From: a virus
Lineage: Duplodnaviria; Heunggongvirae; Uroviricota; Caudoviricetes
Strand: one strand, 5' to 3'
DNA: 39,712 nt
IMG/VR virus record: IMGVR_UViG_2778261706_000022
The notes under the pieces are model-generated. The model searched no databases and was not told where the DNA came from. It saw only the letters and a list, made by a program, of their open reading frames with translations. This document shows positions 1 through 38,710 of the stretch, piece after piece. A program made the position numbers and the translations under genes. Each line of letters starts with the position of its first letter. Position 1 is the first letter of the stretch.

Positions 1-72
1 ATGATGGGGCGTTGCCTTTTCGGCTTCTCAGGCGAGAAGCCGTTCTTATTACCGGACAATGAAGGGGTAAAG

Positions 73-702
73 ATGAACACTTCACCGGTGCGAATGGATG
101 ATTTACCGCTTAACCGTTTTCACTGTCGAATTGCTGCGCTCACTTTCGGCGCACACCTGACCGACGGTTATGTTCTCGGCGTCATTGGTTACGCCATTAT
201 TCAACTTACGCCCGCCATGCAACTGACGCCGTTTATGGCGGGAATGATCGGCGGCTCGGCGCACCTTGGTTTGTTTCTTGGCAGCCTGGTTCTTGGGTGG
301 ATCTCCGACCATATTGGTCGGCAAAAAATCTTCACCTTCAGCTTTTTGCTGATTACGCTCGCTTCGTTCTTGCAATTTTTTGCCACCACGCCAGAGCATC
401 TTATTGGACTGCGCATTTTGATCGGCATTGGTCTGGGAGGCGATTACTCAGTAGGTCACACCTTGCTGGCTGAATTTTCCCCGCGCCGCCATCGCGGTGT
501 TTTGCTGGGCGCATTCAGCGTGGTGTGGACCGTAGGCTATGTGTTGGCAAGTATTGCCGGACATCACTTTATTTCCGAAAACCCGGAGGCCTGGCGCTGG
601 CTGCTGGCATCGGCAGCTCTGCCCGCGTTGTTGATTACGTTATTACGCTGGGGAACGCCAGAATCGCCACGCTGGCTACTTATAGCGCGGCGATTTTTTT
701 GA
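73..702 (+). pseudogene. MFS-family transporter gene, 5' portion only, interrupted by prophage insertion
   Basis: Translation has MFS/sugar-porter signatures (GxxxDxxGRQ-like loop, PESPRW motif). ATG at 73 follows a GAAGGGG Shine-Dalgarno. The frame ends in a TGA at 700-702 that coincides with the first prophage terminal repeat, and the protein is far shorter than a 12-TM transporter. Confidence 0.6.
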
Positions 703-808: not shown

Positions 809-1546
809 TCATTCACTCTCTTTCAAACCAGTTTTAACTGTTTGTGGTTTTGGGTAAGGCTGGACTTTGAATAGCTTTGTGTTGAGGCGTTTTCTGGCCC
901 TCTTGTTCAGAAACCGGATGTAACGAAACTGTCGGAACTTATGAACACTGGCTCTGTCAATATTAGCCCTCAGATGTTCACCTCGTTGTCCGCCTCGTTT
1001 AATGGCATTCCTGCAAATCTCGTGATACCACTCGCCATCAAGTTCATAGAATATTGATTCATGGCTGCCTACATAATCAAAATTGCTTGCCTGATACACG
1101 ACACCAAGACAGCCACAACGCTCATCTGCAAACGACTGAACCCACTGTACCTGCGGATAAAGCTGCCTGATTAGCTTGAGCGCGTAACTGATTGCCCTTG
1201 ATTCGGAGTTTCTCGGCATACAGTCATGCAGCCATAGCCGGTTAAGCTCCATATATTCTCGGTTCTGCGTACCCGTTACGACGCGTGCACCACTGTTTGG
1301 GTTAAGGGCGTAACCCCATTGCATTACGCCAACAAGTTCCCGTTCTGAAAATATGCCCAGATGAAGGTAGGAGTTATTTACGAAACGGTGGCTGTAATGT
1401 TTATTGACGATGACCAGTCTGGCCAGCCAGCAACTTATTGTCTCAACCCGCAACTCACGGGAGCCATAACCAACGATATTGTCGTTATAGCGAATAAGTT
1501 CAGGCGTGCTGATGATTCGGGATGTGACTTGCTTTCTGTTCCCCAC
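809..1546 (-). CDS. mom: Mom-like DNA modification protein
   Basis: Terminal gene of the prophage, overlapped at its 5' end by a Com-like zinc-finger ORF as in Mu com-mom. Start is a GTG at 1546. Identity is by position and the com overlap, not by recalled Mom sequence. Confidence 0.6.
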
Positions 1547-2317: not shown

Positions 2318-2563
2318 TTACATCATAGTACCGTCAGTTCCGGGCTGAACCGGCTCTGGTTGCTCTACGGGTTGAGGATCATTTTCCGTGCTGTTTTCAG
2401 CCGGAGAACGGCCAACCATTCGGGCCAGCACTTCATCAACATATGCGTCGATTTGTGCCTCAAAATCCTTGCGAACCTGCGCCTTCAGCACGCGGTTCAC
2501 TTCTTCAGAATAAAGTGCCTGTTTGACAAGCTCTTCAGTAACCGTGCCTTTAATCTCTGGCAT
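2318..2563 (-). CDS. Hypothetical small acidic protein (81 aa)
   Basis: AAGGAG Shine-Dalgarno 8 nt upstream of the ATG. Helical N-terminus with a Pro/Glu-rich tail. Confidence 0.5.
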   Translation of the reverse strand: MPEIKGTVTEELVKQALYSEEVNRVLKAQVRKDFEAQIDAYVDEVLARMVGRSPAENSTENDPQPVEQPEPVQPGTDGTMM

Positions 2564-2598
2564 GAATATTCTCCTTTTGCAGGTATATTGCCCCGTTA

Positions 2599-2781
2599 TC
2601 AGAGCGGGGTCGGGTCGTTTGGGGATGACGGTGCCTGTGCTGTTTTACTGAGTTTTTCAGCTGCCGCATCATCAATTTTACGGCGAATATAATTTCTGAT
2701 GACCTTATAACCACCGCTCACCAGATATAACGCACTGACCACAGCGCAGAAATAAAGCAGCATTGTATGAACGAATGTCAT
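2599..2781 (-). CDS. Hypothetical small membrane protein (60 aa, one predicted TM helix)
   Basis: Hydrophobic stretch LLYFCAVVSALYLV. Upstream AAAGGTAAGG. Confidence 0.4.
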   Translation of the reverse strand: MTFVHTMLLYFCAVVSALYLVSGGYKVIRNYIRRKIDDAAAEKLSKTAQAPSSPNDPTPL

Positions 2782-2849
2782 ATAACCTTACCTTTGATAT
2801 TGACTACATAATTCGTTATCGGGTAAAAACATCGAAGCGACTGATAACC

Positions 2850-2874
2850 ACTCCTTCGGGAGTATTTTTATTTT
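2850..2874 (+). terminator. Intrinsic terminator-like hairpin (ACTCC-TTCG-GGAGT + T-run)
   Basis: 5-bp stem with TTCG tetraloop at 2850-2863 followed by ATTTTTATTTT. Confidence 0.45.
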
Positions 2875-2893
2875 CCTTTATGGGTTAGGTAGC

Positions 2894-2932
2894 TCCCGCC
2901 AGCCATATCATGACCGGCGGGATTTTTTTATT
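2894..2932 (+). terminator. Intrinsic terminator-like hairpin (TCCCGCC...GGCGGGA + T7)
   Basis: 7-bp GC-rich stem at 2894-2900 / 2916-2922 followed by TTTTTTT. Overlaps the esterase stop codon on the opposite strand. Confidence 0.45.
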
Positions 2933-4967
2933 CTGTTACCGCTTTTTTCACTTCCACCACAATGCTGTCAATCAGCACCGGGTAAGTTGCATTTTTTGTG
3001 ATATCCGTTACGCGGAGTTTGTCCACCGGGAAAGTTCCTACTGGTGACTGCGTCAGGGTAAACGCGGCACCATCCTGACCATCAATAACCGGAATAACCT
3101 GAAGGCTGTTATTTCCTGCAAAACGGAAGGCCAGCGTATGCCATTCATTATCAAATGCACCAAAGGTTCCCAGTTTCTGGTTATTTGTTGCCACTTTTGC
3201 ATTGTGGTACATCACATTCAGGTCTTTTGCGTCTGTCTGGATGTAGAACGATGCCAGCAGATTATTCCCTGCATCCCCTGTCAGGGTGACACCCTGCGGC
3301 AGAGAGGAAACCGGCCAGTAAAGCCCCATGACATACTGGTTTGCCACCAGGTCGCCAGGTACTTTAAAACGACAACTGATTAAACCACCATTTTTCAGCA
3401 GTTCAGCACCAGTACCGGCATCATGATCCAGATACCAAGATGATTTACCTGTTTCCTTGGTCAGTTTCATTGCCTTACCACCTGTGCCTCCTGCATCACT
3501 GATAATTTCAGCTTTACCGCCAGCCGGCTCCCAGCCCTGGGCTTTCAGATTTCCTTCTGACTCACTGACACGATAAGACAGCAGTGTTGTGGTTACTGCT
3601 TCAGTTTCTGAAGGTGACGGCACTGGTGCTTCAGTTTCAGAAGATGGAACATCGGCTTTTACTGTGGTTCGCCCCGCATGAGTCAGAACTGCCGTGGCCA
3701 GACGGTCGGAAATAATCCCACGACGTGCCCATGAACTGAAATGGCTGGCCCGGTCCGCAGATGTCCAGGTGGCGGCACTGTTACGCCACGTTGAGCCGTA
3801 ATAACCAATGGATTCAATATCCGGGTCTTCTGCCGGATTGTTGGTGGGTACATTCGCGTCATTTTCATCTGTCATTAATGGAACGAAATGAATGTTTTTA
3901 TCTGTTTTGTTTTTGTAGCCGCCATAGATTGCCTGGTATGCCGGTTCATTTTTCTGTTTCCAGAAATACGTGGTATCGCCACAAATCCACGGAACGCCAG
4001 CAGCACTGCCACCGGTACACTGTTCCGCCTGTTCAGCCAGGTCTGCGCGGAATTTTTCCACCATCGCCAGAAACAGCGCGGAATGCTCCGTCGGCTTCGC
4101 ATCAATATCAAACTCGCCCTGCATCCACACCACAGCAAGCAGGCGGTTTTTCGGGTTCTTCGCCAGTGCCGCTTTTGTCCGGCTGATTAAGTCCTTATAC
4201 AGCGGCTTATCCACACCCCAGCGGGCTGAGTCCTCTGAAGCACCCGTGCTGTCACTGTACGTGCCGTCAGCACCCGCCGTGAATGCAGAACCACCACGGC
4301 AGCAGGGAACCAGCAGAATCCCCGCATCTGCCGGAATAAACGGCAGCAGTTTTTTGGCAATGTGAAGCCCCTGACCCACGGTGCCATATTGCCCTTTAGC
4401 CACATCCGCTTTCGGGTGATTTTTTCCACTCATATCCTGCACATCATGCAGACAGTGGTCGGCCAGAATGATGTCGTTATACTGACAGGCTTTACCTCCC
4501 GGCGTGACTGTACTGCGACGGGCTAACTGCATAATACGCGGTTCGGGGCGGTCATATGTCTCCGGCAGTGGCAGACCTTCACCGTAAGCCATACCGTTTG
4601 ACTGACCAGCAAGAACCACCACGTAATACCAGGAAGGGGAGCTGGAAGCAGTTTCATTTCCTGACGGACGGGTATGTGTTTCAGCATTATCCCAGTCTGA
4701 CGGTTCAGCAGTACCGGCAACATCAGCACTTAACGGAATGACCGCACCAATACCCGCTCCGGTAATTTCCACACTCGGATCACCGGATACTGGCCTTACC
4801 CACAGGCAATCCCGTGTATTAAAACTGATGAGACAGTCAGCAAATGTCATTCCTCCTTTTGTTTCGGCCGGAGGAAAGGGAGCCTCAAGAAATGCCGCTG
4901 TACCACCGGAAACTTTAACAGTAAAGTTTCCGGGCATTGATGATAGTTGAACCCATTTGGACGTCAT
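2928..4967 (-). CDS. SASA/SGNH-type carbohydrate esterase with C-terminal lectin-like domain (NanS-p-like sialate O-acetylesterase candidate)
   Basis: 679-aa ORF with VLAGQSNGMAYGEG and WMQGEFD motifs typical of the sialate O-acetylesterase (SASA) family, a Pro/Ser/Thr/Glu linker (SETEAPVPSPSETEA), and a C-terminal beta-rich domain. No signal peptide. Confidence 0.6.
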   Translation of the reverse strand: MTSKWVQLSSMPGNFTVKVSGGTAAFLEAPFPPAETKGGMTFADCLISFNTRDCLWVRPVSGDPSVEITGAGIGAVIPLSADVAGTAEPSDWDNAETHTRPSGNETASSSPSWYYVVVLAGQSNGMAYGEGLPLPETYDRPEPRIMQLARRSTVTPGGKACQYNDIILADHCLHDVQDMSGKNHPKADVAKGQYGTVGQGLHIAKKLLPFIPADAGILLVPCCRGGSAFTAGADGTYSDSTGASEDSARWGVDKPLYKDLISRTKAALAKNPKNRLLAVVWMQGEFDIDAKPTEHSALFLAMVEKFRADLAEQAEQCTGGSAAGVPWICGDTTYFWKQKNEPAYQAIYGGYKNKTDKNIHFVPLMTDENDANVPTNNPAEDPDIESIGYYGSTWRNSAATWTSADRASHFSSWARRGIISDRLATAVLTHAGRTTVKADVPSSETEAPVPSPSETEAVTTTLLSYRVSESEGNLKAQGWEPAGGKAEIISDAGGTGGKAMKLTKETGKSSWYLDHDAGTGAELLKNGGLISCRFKVPGDLVANQYVMGLYWPVSSLPQGVTLTGDAGNNLLASFYIQTDAKDLNVMYHNAKVATNNQKLGTFGAFDNEWHTLAFRFAGNNSLQVIPVIDGQDGAAFTLTQSPVGTFPVDKLRVTDITKNATYPVLIDSIVVEVKKAVTE

Positions 4968-5066: not shown

Positions 5067-5627
5067 TTATTTTTCCGAAACGCTCGCAGGATAATAACGA
5101 TAAAGGGTTGAAAGGCCGATATCAAAAATAAGTGCCACCTGTCTTCGACTGACACCCCCGGCCAGTAAACGCCCGACCTGCTCGTATTGTTCCTGCGTGA
5201 GACGACGGGGTCTGCCGCCGGTTCGTCCCCTTTCACGGGCAGCTGCAAGACCAGCCCGTGTCCGTTCGACAATTAATTCACGCTCCATTTCTGCCAGCGC
5301 ACCCATTATGTGAAAAAAGAAGCGCCCCATGGGGGTTGACGTATCAATGTTGTCAGTAAGACTACGAAAATTTATCCCCTGTTGCTGTAATTCATCTGTC
5401 AGCGCAACAAGGTGGCGCATACTGCGCCCCAGCCTGTCCAGTTTCCAGACCATCAGTGTGTCACCGGGTTTTAGTTTCTTCAGTGCCCGCTTCAGTCCCG
5501 GCCGCTGTGTCGTTTTACCACTCATTTTATCTTCAAAAATCTGCTCACATCCTGCACATTCCAGCGCATTTCTTTGTAAACCTGTGTTCTGGTCATTTGT
5601 TGATACGCGTATATAGCCAATCAGCAT
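5067..5627 (-). CDS. gin: Serine DNA invertase (Gin/Pin/Hin/Cin family)
   Basis: Translation MLIGYIRVSTNDQNTGLQRNALECAGCEQIFEDK...FRSLTDNIDTSTPMGRFFFHIMGALAEMERELIVERT closely matches my recollection of Mu Gin. Adjacent to an invertible segment. Confidence 0.9.
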   Translation of the reverse strand: MLIGYIRVSTNDQNTGLQRNALECAGCEQIFEDKMSGKTTQRPGLKRALKKLKPGDTLMVWKLDRLGRSMRHLVALTDELQQQGINFRSLTDNIDTSTPMGRFFFHIMGALAEMERELIVERTRAGLAAARERGRTGGRPRRLTQEQYEQVGRLLAGGVSRRQVALIFDIGLSTLYRYYPASVSEK

Positions 5628-5707: not shown

Positions 5708-6052
5708 ACTGTAAACAGGGCCGCGAATGCCCTGCCATCGAACGGAGCGGCTGTTGCAGCGAATAAACTCGCCACTCCAAGAAATATTAATGGTGTCCCA
5801 TTTGACGGAACGCAGGATATAAATATTACATCGGGGATGACGCAGTCTGTGGCTGACTCACGTTATGTTCAAAGCATTCGAAGAGGTTCAAGGTCAACGA
5901 TTGGAATGCAATATAATATTTTTGAGGTTCCTGACGGATGCGTACTTACAGGGCTTGATGTCGCTGGTGATGGTAATGCAACGGTAACCGCATATTATCG
6001 ACCTGTTCAGTTTCTGATAGATGGTTCGTGGAAAACAGCTTCCAGCGCATAA
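5708..6052 (+). other. Silent alternative tail-fibre C-terminal cassette (S'v-like)
   Basis: Frame is open from the gix site. Translation GLRDTVNRAANALPSNGAAVAANKLATPRNINGVPFDGTQDINITSGMTQSVADSRYVQ parallels the expressed fibre segment GLRETVNKAADALPSGGTAVAANRLATPRNINGVPFDGTLDINITSGMTQSTADGRYVQ, then diverges to a different C-terminus. No start codon of its own. Confidence 0.65.
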
Positions 6053-6131
6053 AAGTGCAGTAGTTCAAAAAACAGATTATCTGAATAAATATATGATGAT
6101 TTTGTCTTTTCAACAAAAACAAGGTGAAATA

Positions 6132-6653
6132 ATGGAGCTTATTAACGTAAAACGATATTACCCGGAACACAAACCCTATGGTGAGGATGTTCAGTATTTC
6201 CAGAGTGAGGACGGAAGGGATTTTTATGAATCTATCCCGCTTTTCACAAAGAAATACAAACTCTGTATTTCGCCTGTAACGGGTATTATCTGCTCTGTTG
6301 CTGAAGATGTCTCTGCTTTATATCCGGCAGGTTTTACTGTTGTTGAAGTGGACGAACTGCCGGAAGGTGTGAATATTGACGGTAACTGGCAGTTTTCTGA
6401 TGGCCTGATATCAAAGGTGCCGGTAAACTGGAAGACGGTTGCTGAAAAGCGCCGCTCATCGCTGCTCCAGGAAGCCAACGAAACTGTGGATGACTGGAAA
6501 ACGGAATTAAAACTGGACATGATTAGCGATGAAAATAAATTACAGCTGACGCGCTGGATGGCGTATATCCGACAGCTTAAAGAAATGCACTTTAATGATA
6601 TTGCCAGTGAGGGGCATTACCAGGCGATTCCCTGGCCGGAAAAACCGGAATAA
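6132..6653 (+). CDS. Tail fibre assembly protein (Tfa/U-like)
   Basis: ATG at 6132 is preceded by AAGGTGA. Translation MELINVKRYYPEHKPYGEDVQYF... has the typical N-terminus of phage tail-fibre assembly chaperones. Lies immediately downstream of the S'v cassette on the same strand. Confidence 0.7.
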   Translation: MELINVKRYYPEHKPYGEDVQYFQSEDGRDFYESIPLFTKKYKLCISPVTGIICSVAEDVSALYPAGFTVVEVDELPEGVNIDGNWQFSDGLISKVPVNWKTVAEKRRSSLLQEANETVDDWKTELKLDMISDENKLQLTRWMAYIRQLKEMHFNDIASEGHYQAIPWPEKPE

Positions 6654-33732: not shown

Positions 33733-34263
33733 TTATTTATTCAGTCCGGCGTCCTGTTCAAAAGGCTCGACATAAAAACTTTCAGCGCCTTTATTCACCT
33801 TAATACCGGCAATGCCTTTCACTGCATCCGGCTCCGCTAGGACCGCTTCCTTGTTCACTTCCTCTTTCGTGCGGATGAATCGCTCAAGCCCCATACGGCG
33901 CAGCATTTCAATCACACCTTCCACATCACGGCTGACGCTGCATGATGGATTTCCCAGCCGCCATGACACTGTTCCGGTGGTCAGATTGGCTGTTTTGGTT
34001 TTGCCGCCGTTCGTCAGCTCATCGCGGTTGGTTTTGCACCAGTCCTGAATCCCCTTAAAAAGCACTTTGATTTCTTTTTTAAGGTTTTCAATCTGCGGCG
34101 TATAACGGGCGGTGATTTCTGCCACTTCATCATTCATCGCCGTTTCCAGCCGTAGCGCCTCTCGCTGAATATCGCCCAGGGTACGGATATCGCGGCTGAC
34201 TTCTTCGCGGGTCTGCGGTGCAGCCTCGGCTGCGGCCTTTAATTTTGTAACACGTTTAGCCAT
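33733..34263 (-). CDS. gam: Gam, host-nuclease inhibitor (Ku-like DNA-end binding protein)
   Basis: RLETAMNDEVAEITARY, NRDELTNGGKTKTANLTTGTVSWR and RFIRTKEEVNKEAVLAEP match my recollection of Mu Gam. Confidence 0.85.
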   Translation of the reverse strand: MAKRVTKLKAAAEAAPQTREEVSRDIRTLGDIQREALRLETAMNDEVAEITARYTPQIENLKKEIKVLFKGIQDWCKTNRDELTNGGKTKTANLTTGTVSWRLGNPSCSVSRDVEGVIEMLRRMGLERFIRTKEEVNKEAVLAEPDAVKGIAGIKVNKGAESFYVEPFEQDAGLNK

Positions 34264-34274
34264 TTTGTTTTTCC

Positions 34275-34568
34275 TTATTGCAGTGTGCCTGATGCTTTAT
34301 GCACGCGGTGGCGTTTAATGATGGCATCCGCCCCAAAAGCCTGTACAGATGCCTGAAATTCCGCTGAGAGAAACTGAATAATTTCAGGACTGTGATACTG
34401 GAGAATACTTGCATAAACGCCACAGAGTGACGTCGGCCTGTTATTCGTATCACGTTCTGTTTTTACATCCACACCAATCTTTTCATGCACTTCAACACAG
34501 TCATTGCCTGCCGGTTTTTCGTCATGCGAAACATGCTTAAATTCAAAAATAACGCGTACTTTGCTCAT
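34275..34568 (-). CDS. Hypothetical protein, paralogue B of a tandem pair
   Basis: N-terminus MSKVRVIFEFKH resembles MSKVVRIIFEYKE of the upstream gene. Internal ATG at 34568 chosen as start. Confidence 0.45.
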   Translation of the reverse strand: MSKVRVIFEFKHVSHDEKPAGNDCVEVHEKIGVDVKTERDTNNRPTSLCGVYASILQYHSPEIIQFLSAEFQASVQAFGADAIIKRHRVHKASGTLQ

Positions 34569-34572
34569 GGAA

Positions 34573-34845
34573 TTACCCCTGCTGATTAAATTCATTACCT
34601 TTAATAACCCCGGAACGCATGCTCATATCTTTCATGAGCGCACTGGCTTTCATTGCCACAAGTTCAGCAAAGTCTCTGCTTTCCGCGAGCATAACCACCC
34701 CAAAAATCATGGCGGGTCCATCACCTTTCTGCTTTATCCCGGTTGAACGTATGTCCAGACTTACCCCCATGCGCACTGTTCCATCAGCGTTTTTATGGAT
34801 AACGTGCTCCTTGTATTCGAAAATAATGCGTACGACTTTACTCAT
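34573..34845 (-). CDS. Hypothetical protein, paralogue A of a tandem pair
   Basis: 90-aa ORF sharing its N-terminal motif with the next gene. Confidence 0.45.
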   Translation of the reverse strand: MSKVVRIIFEYKEHVIHKNADGTVRMGVSLDIRSTGIKQKGDGPAMIFGVVMLAESRDFAELVAMKASALMKDMSMRSGVIKGNEFNQQG

Positions 34846-35123
34846 CCTCTGGTCCTCGTTCTGTTTGGATAACTGACCCGGCGTCTGACCTCACGGCAGA
34901 ACCGAATCATGGCATTAAAGGCTTCTTCCTCCGTCACCGCTTCCGGTATCCCCGGAACCAGTAACTGCTCCTGTTCATCACGTCCATGACGCGCCATAAC
35001 CTCAATCACATGCCGTACCGTGGCAGGCTTTCCGGCAACTATCGGCAATGCACCTTCCGGCAGGACGTAACCAAACTCAATAAGACCACTCGACCACGCC
35101 CATGCAATGAGATTTTTTTTCAC
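34842..35123 (-). CDS. Hypothetical early protein (93 aa)
   Basis: ORF in the B-proximal early region. Confidence 0.4.
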   Translation of the reverse strand: MKKNLIAWAWSSGLIEFGYVLPEGALPIVAGKPATVRHVIEVMARHGRDEQEQLLVPGIPEAVTEEEAFNAMIRFCREVRRRVSYPNRTRTRG

Positions 35124-35391: not shown

Positions 35392-35619
35392 TTAGCTGAC
35401 TTGTTTCGCACCAACAGAACGGCATATTCCGCTGTAAACGTCTGTCGCACCTTCGCGATCAAGTCCGGCAGATATCACCATTCGTGTGCGGTCATTAAAT
35501 TCAAAAAGTAAATCGCCACATTCTTTATTTTCGGCCAGTGAAATCACCTTCACGTTATCGAAATTAACCAGGTAAAAGCGTCCGTAAATATCAGGAATAT
35601 TAAATACCGCCATAATCAC
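35392..35619 (-). CDS. Hypothetical early protein (75 aa)
   Basis: ORF immediately downstream of B (the Mu kil position). Confidence 0.4.
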   Translation of the reverse strand: MIMAVFNIPDIYGRFYLVNFDNVKVISLAENKECGDLLFEFNDRTRMVISAGLDREGATDVYSGICRSVGAKQVS

Positions 35620-36548
35620 ACCTGTGAGAGTAATTCAGGGTTGGTATAAACCTCTTTAAAGGCCGCATTAATATGTTTTTCTGTCAGCGCCGCGCCTTCA
35701 CCGCTGGCGGTGAGCCACGCCTGGTTAAGCGTATGTGTCAGAACGCGTAACGCTCCCGGCTTTTCAGCGATAGCCTGCATGACGGCCAGCTCGGCCTCAC
35801 CACTGATCCCCCACGCCCTGGCAATGGCCAGCACATCCGCCTTTTTGGCCTTGCGAAGTTGTTTTGTACGGGCAAGACGGCTGAACAGGCGCGATAAATC
35901 ATCAAAGGCGCGGCGTCCACCTTTAAACAATCCGCGCGGGTTACCAATAAGCACCATCCCGATCCCCGTGGCGTCCTGAATTGCCCGGAGTTGCTCCAGA
36001 CCGTCAATACCCAGATGATCCGCCTCATCCACAATCACCAGTCCACGCGTTCCCATCAGGCGACGGCGGATGGCGCGGGATAATGCCCCTTTGTTCGCGC
36101 GGGTGTAATCAATCCCCAGCGCATCGGCCAGCTCCAGCAGACACTCCGTGACGCTGGAGTGCGCGGGTGACAGGGTGATCATCCAGGTGTTTGGTTGCTC
36201 CTGGCAGTAATTACGGGCAGTGGCCGTTTTACCCACACCCGGTACGCCCACAATAACGTTAATACAGCCCATCAGACGAACCGCCTGAAACAGTGCGCGC
36301 AGCTCCTGGACTGTCTGCGTTTCCACAAACTGCGGCGGTTCCGGCAGTGCGCTTTGTTTATTCCAGTTTTCATACCAGGAACGCAGGGAAGCAGCCACAG
36401 CGGCGTTATCGCCTTTATATTTCCCCTTGCGGAAAGCCGATAATGTGCCGTCGGAAATTCCCGCCTCTCTGGCGATGGCATACTGCGTCAGTACGCCGCC
36501 ATCAATAAGTTCATCAATGGTCTTGATTACATCGTTAATATCAGTCAT
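35616..36548 (-). CDS. B: Transposition ATPase / target DNA activator B (AAA+)
   Basis: Walker A GVPGVGKT and Walker B LVIVDEADH motifs, with an N-terminal HTH-like region. Directly downstream of the transposase. Confidence 0.85.
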   Translation of the reverse strand: MTDINDVIKTIDELIDGGVLTQYAIAREAGISDGTLSAFRKGKYKGDNAAVAASLRSWYENWNKQSALPEPPQFVETQTVQELRALFQAVRLMGCINVIVGVPGVGKTATARNYCQEQPNTWMITLSPAHSSVTECLLELADALGIDYTRANKGALSRAIRRRLMGTRGLVIVDEADHLGIDGLEQLRAIQDATGIGMVLIGNPRGLFKGGRRAFDDLSRLFSRLARTKQLRKAKKADVLAIARAWGISGEAELAVMQAIAEKPGALRVLTHTLNQAWLTASGEGAALTEKHINAAFKEVYTNPELLSQV

Positions 36549-36586: not shown

Positions 36587-36620
36587 AACCTGAGTCGCCG
36601 CTCGGGTTATTTTTTTATTT
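36587..36620. other. Hairpin with flanking A/T runs between transposase and B genes
   Basis: AACCTGAG-tcgccg-CTCGGGTT stem followed on the plus strand by ATTTTTTTATTT; on the minus-strand RNA the hairpin is followed by AUUUGAUU. Confidence 0.4.
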
Positions 36621-38710
36621 CAGGCCAGCGGGTCATTTTCTTTTAATTTCGCTTCCAGCAACTGCAATCCCCGCTGGAAATTACGCTCGTATTCTTCATC
36701 AGGTTCATCGTCAGCGACCGGTTGCTGAACGGTCACCGTATTACCCACAGGGCGGTATATGTTTTCCAGCCAGGGCTCCTGCGGCTTGTGCTCCAGCACG
36801 TTGACAACCTCATCCTCGGCATCACGGATTTTTTCCTCTGCGCGTTTACGCATGCCTTTAAGGCGTTGCTGCTGTTTGTAGTATTCCGCGCTGACCGGGA
36901 AGGCTTCGCGTTTATTGCCGTCCCATACCGCCTCGCAAATCACGCTGCCATCCAGGCGACGTACGGTAATTCGTTCGGCATCATGAATGTCATAGCTGAT
37001 AAGCACCTTACGGCCATGCTCGTCACGCAGCTCGGGCGCGTAGTAAATATTATTCAGCCAGCGTATTTCACAGCGTCTTACAGGGCGTTCCACCATCGGC
37101 CGGAACATATCCCGCAGCTCAACATCGGACAGCCATTCAATTTCCGTGTCCTCTTCCGCCAGGCGTTTTTTTCTGAACTCCGCCGGGCTGTAATGCTTGC
37201 CGTTCGGCTTCACCGGTAATTCATCGTGCGGCCGGTTGTTGTACCACTCAACACCGTCACGAATGGCATCAATCAGTTCAGACCAGGACGGTAAATCACG
37301 CATCGCTGACTGCTGCCGGGCGTTCAGCCGTTTGCCCTGTTGCAGGGCAGTAAATGCCGAGCGTAAATCGCGGTTGGTTTTGCGTAACGTCTCGCGATCT
37401 GCACCTTTCCCGAAATAGGTGCGGTATTTACGGGCTATGCGCATCGGTAATGTGCGGTTAAGCCGTTCGATAATGCCTCGTCCCTGCGGATTACCGGCAA
37501 TCCCGGTCGGGTGATTAATCCCCAGTCGCGGCAGTATCCCCACAACCTCCTTATCCAGGATGTCGGCGGTTTCCCCGGAGCCGTTATCCGAGTAATACAG
37601 AAACGGTTTGCCGTGATGGCGAATGCCGTGCTGTATGGCACCGGCTACGGCGAAAACATTTTCAGCCAGGTCAAGGCTCCAGCCCACCACAAAGCGCGTG
37701 CCACCGTCGATAACAAAGGTCACTTCCGGTGCAAATGGCCGACCGTGAACCGGGTGTGCGCATTTCAGCTTCATGCCGTGACCGTCACCAATCCAGACAT
37801 AATTCACCGGCATTCTGGACCAGTCGCGGCGCGTGAATCCCTCAAGCTGGCGGTATTCACTGCCGGTCACCCGGCCTTTTTGTTTCACCACTTCCGGCAG
37901 TTTCTTCATTGCGCGGCGAATGGTGTCATAAGACGGCATGATATCGAGCATATAAGGCTCATTAGCGTGCCGGTGCTGCCATTCAGCGACAAAATCCTCG
38001 TAAGCCTCGGTCATTGGTCGGCCGTTTGACTGGCGATACTGCGCCAGAAATTCGGGCAGCCAGTTAATATCTTCGGCTTTTATTTCCTGGCGCTTACCCG
38101 GTGCCAGTAAAAGCAGGCGTTCAGCGGCGTTCTGCGCCTTGTTAAAGGCCGCAATCCAGCGTTTCAGCGTGATTTCACTTAACGCGCGGCTGTTTCCCTT
38201 TTTGGCGTTCGCCGTCTCAACCATTGCCACAATGCGCTCGTCCAGCTGCGAACGTGCCAGGTTGTCAACGATAAACCGGATAGCCTTCGCACAGCTGAAA
38301 CCAGGTTGTTGCGCGACTTTCAGAACTTCGCTGACGATCGCGATTCGTGCATCAGCCACCTGGCGCTGGTTTTCAGTCAGGGCATTAAGGCGTTCGACCA
38401 TCAGTTGTGGTGATCCGCGATATGCCTCCACCGCATCAACCACGGCAGGCGAGCGTCTGGCCTTTGTCACCACTGGAGCCGGTGATTCATCGACTTTTTG
38501 AGTCATCAGTTGCAGGGCGTAGCGTTCACGTAATGCCTGCTGCGTCACTTCAGGTAAACAGTCGATGCTGTATTCAGTTGCTTTAGAGCCTGAGCGACGA
38601 CGGGAACAACAGCTTTTCCCTTGTACGTAACGTTGTAATGCCTGGCGAATACCTTTTGTTGTAGCAGGCATTCCGGGCGCGCCAATCAGTTCTTTTGCAA
38701 TGACATACAT
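36620..38710 (-). CDS. A: DDE transposase (MuA-like)
   Basis: 696-aa ORF between ner and B. Central region (WIGDGHGMKLK..., GIPE-like context) resembles the MuA catalytic core. Confidence 0.85.
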   Translation of the reverse strand: MYVIAKELIGAPGMPATTKGIRQALQRYVQGKSCCSRRRSGSKATEYSIDCLPEVTQQALRERYALQLMTQKVDESPAPVVTKARRSPAVVDAVEAYRGSPQLMVERLNALTENQRQVADARIAIVSEVLKVAQQPGFSCAKAIRFIVDNLARSQLDERIVAMVETANAKKGNSRALSEITLKRWIAAFNKAQNAAERLLLLAPGKRQEIKAEDINWLPEFLAQYRQSNGRPMTEAYEDFVAEWQHRHANEPYMLDIMPSYDTIRRAMKKLPEVVKQKGRVTGSEYRQLEGFTRRDWSRMPVNYVWIGDGHGMKLKCAHPVHGRPFAPEVTFVIDGGTRFVVGWSLDLAENVFAVAGAIQHGIRHHGKPFLYYSDNGSGETADILDKEVVGILPRLGINHPTGIAGNPQGRGIIERLNRTLPMRIARKYRTYFGKGADRETLRKTNRDLRSAFTALQQGKRLNARQQSAMRDLPSWSELIDAIRDGVEWYNNRPHDELPVKPNGKHYSPAEFRKKRLAEEDTEIEWLSDVELRDMFRPMVERPVRRCEIRWLNNIYYAPELRDEHGRKVLISYDIHDAERITVRRLDGSVICEAVWDGNKREAFPVSAEYYKQQQRLKGMRKRAEEKIRDAEDEVVNVLEHKPQEPWLENIYRPVGNTVTVQQPVADDEPDEEYERNFQRGLQLLEAKLKENDPLA

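Follow-up and report, generated by a model that had tools for sequence, protein, structure and literature searches.

Small, non-enzymatic, stand-alone phage proteins that shift the O-antigen ladders of their hosts have been described by Silas et al. (Nat Commun 2025, PMC12373910). The ORF that they named gnarl2 is exactly the Mu gene known as E6 or Mup07 (NP_050611; NC_000929 4784..5047), and its expression moves the O-antigen ladder downwards and raises T5 infection 1e5-1e6-fold in the wild E. coli strains ECOR1 and ECOR22, not in ECOR3 (PMC12373910). The AP-MS data for Gnarl2 were uninformative as to its direct target (PMC12373910), thus the LPS pathway describes a phenotype and not a mechanism. 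Gnarl1 and Gnarl3 of lytic phages are similar to Gnarl2 by function, a likeness drawn from their descriptions only, and Gnarl3 binds GalU (PMC12373910). Within the superfamily delineated here, the O-antigen phenotype is reported for Mu E6 only. In the literature that mentions the gnarl genes, we found no analysis of the family, and Gnarl2 has so far been a single orphan protein with a striking phenotype.

The DNA analysed here, referred to as the window, is a stretch of 39,712 nucleotides (IMG/VR record IMGVR_UViG_2778261706_000022) that represents a Mu-like prophage with the genes A, B, kil, gam and Gp11_C, hosted by pathogenic E. coli. The gene order on the minus strand is A, B, orf75, a Kil-family gene, orf93, orf90, orf97 and gam, followed by DUF5420-like, Gp11_C and Gp12-like genes (Table 1). 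Positions 34275-34845 span exactly orf90 and orf97, two adjacent ORFs on the minus strand as originally predicted, and both are kept in the early operon in the order orf93-orf90-orf97-gam. The ATGA overlap between orf93 and orf90 suggests translational coupling, the gap between the orf97 stop and the gam start is 11 nt, and no promoter-like or terminator-like minus-strand sites were found within the pair. Given this tight packing and the lack of internal signals, orf90 and orf97 most likely share transcription from the early promoter.

Table 1. Features of the early region of the Mu-like prophage, with positions in the window
Feature	Position	Strand	Remarks
Transposase A	36620-38710	(-)	
B	35616-36548	(-)	
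orf93	34842..35123	(-)	PHROG 1518; upstream neighbour of orf90
GAGGA Shine-Dalgarno for orf90	34853-34857	(-)	7 nt upstream of orf90
orf93 stop/orf90 start ATGA overlap	34842..34845	(-)	read from the sequence
orf90	34573..34845	(-)	90 aa; small early protein; PHROG 4107
orf90 5' motif MSKVVRIIFEYK	34810..34845	(-)	first 11 nt ATGAGTAAAGT, direct repeat with the orf97 start
orf90-orf97 junction	34569..34580	(-)	AGGGG Shine-Dalgarno 34576-34580, 7 nt upstream of the orf97 ATG; TAA stop of orf90 34573-34575; 4-nt spacer between this TAA and the orf97 ATG
orf97	34275..34568	(-)	97 aa; small early protein; PHROG 2230
orf97 5' motif MSKVRVIFEFK	34536..34568	(-)	starts ATGAGCAAAGT; other end of the 277-nt ATG-to-ATG unit, which is missing in single-copy relatives
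gam	33733..34263	(-)	Pfam PF07352 Phage_Mu_Gam, 1.5e-41; downstream neighbour of orf97

The upstream neighbour orf93 is variable, being present in 27 and absent in 15 otherwise collinear E. coli loci, with a 72-nt 3' remnant retained in strain CI5, and more distant Mu-like phages have its homologue on the downstream side of gam. Its PHROG carries the label 'host nuclease inhibitor', yet orf93 has no Pfam match. Just inside the prophage end opposite the early operon lies a Mom-family gene (809-1546 (-)), and a truncated MFS sugar-transporter ORF at the window edge (1-702 (+)) is probably the host flank interrupted by the prophage. A gene at 2928-4967 (-) encodes a 679-aa protein with a SASA-type carbohydrate esterase domain and DUF6645, adjoined by a Gin-type serine invertase and a tail-fibre assembly gene (5067-5627 (-), 6021-6653 (+)), which together suggest a tail-fibre region that may act on surface polysaccharide.

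The product of orf90 begins with MSKVVRIIFEYKE and that of orf97 with MSKVRVIFEFKH. In the mechanical ORF list, the longest form of orf97 runs from the ATG at 34595 (MNLISRGNS-MSKV...) and overlaps the end of orf90, while the MSKV start is used by the RefSeq annotation of identical prophages and by a protein cluster of 777 members. At loci lacking orf93, gene callers extend orf90 by 26 codons (MKLLHGSALSS...; P0001, P0013). The upstream extensions of both orf97 (34569-34595) and orf90 are probably artefacts. Each protein has a full-length hmmscan match to its own PHROG, orf90 to phrog_4107 (1.1e-61, positions 1-90 of 90) and orf97 to phrog_2230 (6.2e-40, positions 1-88 of 89), and no cross-match to the other's PHROG appeared even at E up to 10. 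The orf90 family was found in E. coli only, at 73-97% identity. Pfam, NCBIfam and PADLOC returned no family matches for either protein, including Gam and host-nuclease inhibitor families (Phage_Mu_Gam and related PHROGs), and PDB sequence searches yielded no solved relative. The median dN/dS against the window alleles was 0.31 for orf90 and 0.43 for orf97; the neighbours had medians of 0.04 (B), 0.06 (gam), 0.08 (kil), 0.12 (orf93) and 0.17 (orf75). Both are real, intact genes under purifying but relaxed or diversifying constraint. The idea that they are DNA mimics was ruled out by composition, the net charge being about +3 for orf90 and about neutral for orf97.

Structure prediction with AF2 on shallow family alignments gave a hairpin plus helices in both proteins (strands at about 4-18 and 24-39, helix at about 57-75), at a pLDDT of only 54.7 and 53.7, and a Foldseek search of these low-confidence models against BFVD found nothing below E 0.01. 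The models hint at a possible common fold of orf90 and orf97.

Near-identical starts of the two proteins were the basis of the original prediction, and 10 of 12 aligned N-terminal residues are indeed common to both, with one gap. The motif [MVL]SKV.?R[IV]IFE[FY]K has just two occurrences in all six frames of the window, at the starts of orf90 and orf97. BLASTP aligned the pair at 33% identity over 55 residues (E 8e-4), their Smith-Waterman score was reached by 5 of 2000 shuffles, and the two family HMMs are each other's best non-self match among 5023 ORFs. In pairwise alignment the N-terminus matches and the bodies do not match significantly: after removal of the first 12-13 residues, the Smith-Waterman z falls to 1.3-2.3, and body-only hhalign scores 10.7 against a column-shuffle null of 9.7±2.2, with 29 of 100 shuffles reaching the score. 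In direct comparison, the similarity is thus confined to about the first 12 residues. At the superfamily level this does not hold. The orf90 family aligns with a 54-sequence orf97 superfamily alignment (A5) over 74-75 of 90 columns (probability 89-91.5%, E 0.9-2.4e-6), and its hhalign score against this profile is 35.7 compared with a column-shuffle null of 10.8±2.1. With both profiles stripped of the N-terminal strand, the score of 27.3 still stands far above the null of 10.7±2.4 and was reached by 0 of 100 shuffles, whereas unrelated small operon proteins used as a control score 10-14 against the merged superfamily profile. The significant strand-free scores extend the similarity beyond the N-terminal dozen residues, to 75 of 90 columns, and orf90 and orf97 are very probably paralogues within this superfamily.

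The relatives that connect the two families came from an exhaustive HMMER search with the orf97 family profile, which returned only 11 representatives and gave the key Salmonella and Serratia bridges, proteins of 97 aa; a later profile search found more than 100 such 97-aa proteins, with a best E of 1e-35. Local jackhmmer searches of the fetched ORFs failed to connect the families, a scan of genome contigs with the superfamily alignment and a search of viral contigs with the type 3 protein P0141 found nothing, and a tblastn and blastn search of a phage collection with both proteins hit only two Stx phages carrying an inserted Mu-like element. By hhalign, the E. coli orf97 family (Ec97) matches Salmonella types 1 and 2 (SalT12) at E 5.5e-21, SalT12 matches Salmonella type 3 (SalT3, the 'MSNKVQVIFTAECE' type) at 1e-15 and the D108 gp7 family (D108fam) at 2e-13, and Ec97 matches D108fam at 4.4e-9. 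The orf90 family (Ec90) matches SalT3 at E 1.5e-5, with a Smith-Waterman z of 9-10 against P0141-type proteins. In addition, P0079 finds D108 gene 7 by tblastn at 1e-3 (against 2.3 Gb). Placed by profile similarity, orf97 groups with the Salmonella type-1/2 proteins and D108 gp7, and orf90 is a long-branch member with a body nearest to Salmonella type 3.

The 97-aa proteins of Salmonella, Serratia and Klebsiella (P0065-P0164) belong with the orf97 family and occupy the slot after an orf93 homologue, which is the usual upstream flank of the single-copy Salmonella gene. They differ from the E. coli pair in that they are always single-copy in the loci examined, start with MSNKVQVIFT and end in His. 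This C-terminal His (alignment A6) occurs in all members examined (Mu E6, D108 gp7, Salmonella, Serratia, Klebsiella) except orf90 and orf97, which end in G and Q. At the Salmonella loci, moreover, a DUF3164 gene and not gam lies downstream of the family gene; L085, L086 and L121-L125 encode a 212-aa DUF3164 protein where E. coli, Serratia and Mu-type phages have Gam. In L085, a DDE_3 (IS630-type) transposase gene (2405-3418) is inserted among the accessory genes of the Salmonella Mu-like early operon. The D108 gp7 family (32 IMG/VR loci, 33-100% identity) is firmly homologous to orf97 and to the Salmonella types (hhalign E from 4.4e-9 to 1.7e-14); its N-terminus reads MAKVIFEF, and it has in common with them a hypervariable hairpin and a better conserved GP...A.I...P.II helix; unlike the E. 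coli genes it is single-copy, and its link to orf90 is weak (E 0.005).

Phage Mu enters through D108. The D108 and E6 families align end to end over 83 columns (E 3.4e-6; score 41.5 versus a null of 10.3±2.1), one divergent protein of the D108 gp7 family (L157) hits E6 (3.8e-7), the orf97 superfamily (4.8e-6) and orf90 (2e-4), and Mu E6 matches phrog_2230 at 0.009. Direct profile comparisons with the Mu E6 family were not significant (Ec90 E 0.3, Ec97 E 0.18), so that the link of orf90 and orf97 to Mu E6 is transitive. Mu E6 has a similar length (87 aa), the N-terminal strand motif M-A-K-V-I-I-E-I, a collinear alignment and the same place among the early genes of a transposable phage, with B/kil on one side and gam on the other. 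It differs in its identity to orf90 and orf97 of below 20%, and Mu has a single copy that two unrelated genes (E7, E8) separate from gam. The whole alignment of 13 sequences is collinear, with the strand M-[SA]-x-K-V-x-[VI]-I-F-[ET]-[FY], a second strand, a GP loop, an A.IL...P.II helix and a conserved Gly. The gene keeps its place throughout the superfamily, with B/kil upstream and either gam or the gene replacing it downstream. We consider it probable that Gnarl2 of Mu is a member of the superfamily. Judged by sequence, the kinship of orf90 and orf97 with each other and with Mu E6 is ancient and remote. The explanation that we favour, with moderate confidence in it as a whole, is that orf90 and orf97 are anciently diverged members of one superfamily of small (85-98 aa) Mu-like early accessory proteins that includes D108 gp7 and Mu gp7/E6 (Gnarl2).

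The near-identical starts have a place in this explanation. In every subfamily, variability is lowest in the first 10 residues (0.0-0.3 bits) and highest in the predicted hairpin, which takes up the 20-30 residues after them. The form of the N-terminus differs by backbone: MSKV.R.IFE in both orf90 and orf97 of E. coli, MSNKVQVIFT in both type 1 and type 3 of Salmonella, and MAKVI in Mu, D108 and L157. The N-terminus therefore tracks the phage backbone or lineage and the gene body tracks the type, and the match between orf90 and orf97 is the lineage-specific form of a motif common to all superfamily members. When Salmonella T3 is compared with T1, or Mu with D108, the DNA identity is 75-100% in the flanks, drops 20-40 nt into the gene and recovers at the 3' end, indicating that the gene body is a swap cassette with its 5' boundary inside the ORF. 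With the boundary about 20-40 nt inside the ORF, N-termini would track the backbone and bodies would not. Compared with the single-copy strain E. coli CI5, the window has an extra 277 nt, exactly 34845 to 34569, which is one ATG-to-ATG unit with the repeat ATGAGYAAAGT on either side; the upstream flank in CI5 matches that of orf90. These comparisons suggest that the shared N-terminus of orf90 and orf97 marks a cassette edge, where recombination takes place. The 5' DNA of the two genes is only 66-73% identical and carries synonymous differences, which excludes a recent gene conversion there.

The pair had originally been taken for an old tandem duplication. Its status as ancient paralogues stands, while duplication in situ followed by divergence is not supported, since the bodies are closer to relatives elsewhere. 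An in-situ tandem duplication of one ancestral gene, after which the bodies diverged and purifying selection alone kept the N-terminal strand, would agree with the adjacency, common orientation and similar lengths of orf90 and orf97, with derived N-terminal residues (R after KV; E-[FY]-K) that they share and that the Salmonella and Mu types lack, with a profile E for Ec90-Ec97 (9.5e-6) about equal to that for Ec90-SalT3, and with the 11-nt direct repeat around the 277-nt unit, as a duplication would leave. However, the two copies are not closest to each other. The body-only z is 2.3 for Ec90-Ec97, 9.8 for Ec90-SalT3 and 17.5 for Ec97-SalT1, and body-only hhalign of orf90 with Salmonella type 3 scores 28.8 against a null of 10.2±2.1. 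The resemblance of orf90 to type 3 and of orf97 to type 1 indicates that the body types are older than the E. coli lineage and are found elsewhere singly, as alternatives to each other. Moreover, alleles without any tandem history (Salmonella T1/T3; Mu/D108) also have N-termini that track the backbone. We thus regard duplication in situ as unlikely. As an extension of the cassette reading, the conserved first 11-13 codons could be a built-in recombination junction through which Mu-like phages swap and occasionally stack Gnarl2-like bodies, each recognising a different variant of a protein of host envelope biosynthesis, so that the E. coli pair would be a two-specificity arsenal for remodelling hosts with different O-antigen machineries; this idea is speculative and we hold it to be doubtful.

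A survey of copy number showed that relatives carry a single copy and that the tandem pair characterises a single lineage of E. coli, the O157/STEC type, in which two different body types stand in tandem. The 571-nt pair region is present in 232 of 5426 complete E. coli genomes, 223 of which have both genes, and is 100% identical in the chromosomes of O157:H7, O103:H2 and other STEC; the sole Mu-like prophage of O157 Sakai is named Sp18 (PMC2669165). Among 38 informative E. coli-type viral contigs from a Gam-based scan, 36 have the intact pair, one has a disrupted orf90 (L045) and one has the orf97 type only (L024). Single copies were found in E. coli strain CI5, at all seven Salmonella loci, at the one Serratia locus and at the Mu-type (n=19) and D108-type (n=32) loci, and none of the loci surveyed had orf90 without orf97. 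Protein P0036, encoded on an E. coli contig at the place that corresponds to 34275-34845 of the window, is a natural in-frame chimera of orf90 residues 1-49 (...PAMIFG) and orf97 residues 80-97 (ADAIIKRHRVHKASGTLQ), joined at an 'FG' dipeptide common to both proteins. A distant metagenomic Mu-like contig, L049 (IMG/VR 3300036772_000566), has two adjacent small ORFs between an orf93 homologue and gam (3515-3730, MSKIVIELKD...; 3730-3960, MAKQVITITL...). They look E6-like and match the E6 family at E 3.4e-4; against the merged superfamily profile they scored no better than the unrelated control orf75, and relatives with which to build a profile were not found. L049 may be an independent tandem pair of E6-like genes.

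According to the favoured explanation, orf90 and orf97 would be non-enzymatic proteins that are produced soon after induction and each bind a host factor. Their homology with Gnarl2 would make O-antigen/LPS biosynthesis the likeliest pathway, the specificity for the target would be set by the variable beta-hairpin, and with two diverged copies the phage would act on a wider range of host variants. The cell surface would be changed during lytic development, with less superinfection or re-adsorption of progeny as the outcome. Mu-type phages adsorb to LPS, and a change of LPS in lytic growth could therefore cut superinfection and the loss of progeny on debris. The benefit of an LPS change in reducing superinfection and progeny loss on cell debris has also been argued by Silas et al. 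(PMC12373910). In lysogens this operon is presumably under repression, which would limit any surface change to induction or lytic growth. That the two proteins target variable host factors, as the original prediction proposed, is plausible in view of the raised dN/dS and the homology to Mu Gnarl2. The narrower proposal, that they act on O-antigen or LPS, we put forward tentatively as a possibility.

The proteins could instead be host-targeting factors directed at something other than LPS or O-antigen, perhaps an intracellular defence or a core host process, in which case the Gnarl2 phenotype would not be transferable. Fast-evolving families such as this one often change function, the proteins are highly diverged, with less than 20% identity to Mu E6, and the hypervariable beta-hairpin, raised dN/dS and cassette-like allele turnover are typical of arms-race genes; the uninformative AP-MS of Gnarl2 leaves room for such a target as well. 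On the other hand, the sole experimental phenotype in the superfamily concerns O-antigen, and no PADLOC, Pfam or NCBIfam match points elsewhere, so that we consider a target of this sort rather improbable. A role in phage DNA transactions, with orf90 and orf97 as partners of Gam, B or transposition in the manner of an unmapped classical semi-essential early function of Mu, is suggested by their position in the early operon immediately upstream of gam. Such a role is very unlikely, as the Salmonella relatives have DUF3164 for Gam and still retain the family, the body is replaced between the near-identical Mu and D108 with flanking genes unchanged, and neither orf90 nor orf97 is strongly charged or gives a signal for a DNA-binding family. 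Finally, a chance or convergent match between unrelated ORFs, or between ORFs that are not both genes, accords with the loss of direct pairwise significance beyond residue 12 but is scarcely credible given N-terminus-free profile scores significant against empirical nulls, a collinear superfamily alignment, intact ORFs in 36/38 informative viral contigs and 223 genomes, and dN/dS <1 for both.

The pair consists of small phage accessory effectors of a known kind and is not a new kind of system. In the literature searched, the putative link of orf90 and orf97 to Gnarl2, the proposed cassette boundary and the apparent stacked arrangement are new, and the proteins of these families are annotated as hypothetical only, in three separate PHROGs. 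Gnarl2 is now grouped with PHROGs 4107, 2230 and 10252, and more than 100 prophage proteins of E. coli, Salmonella, Serratia and Klebsiella join it in one family. This panel of diverged variants, in which the variable hairpin has been mapped next to a conserved helix, is usable for mapping specificity and finding the target. More generally, caution is due where neighbouring phage genes have identical N-termini, which can reflect the border of a cassette and not a recent duplication. If either protein alters O-antigen on induction, this would bear on phage susceptibility and serotype-dependent phenotypes in O157 and other STEC.
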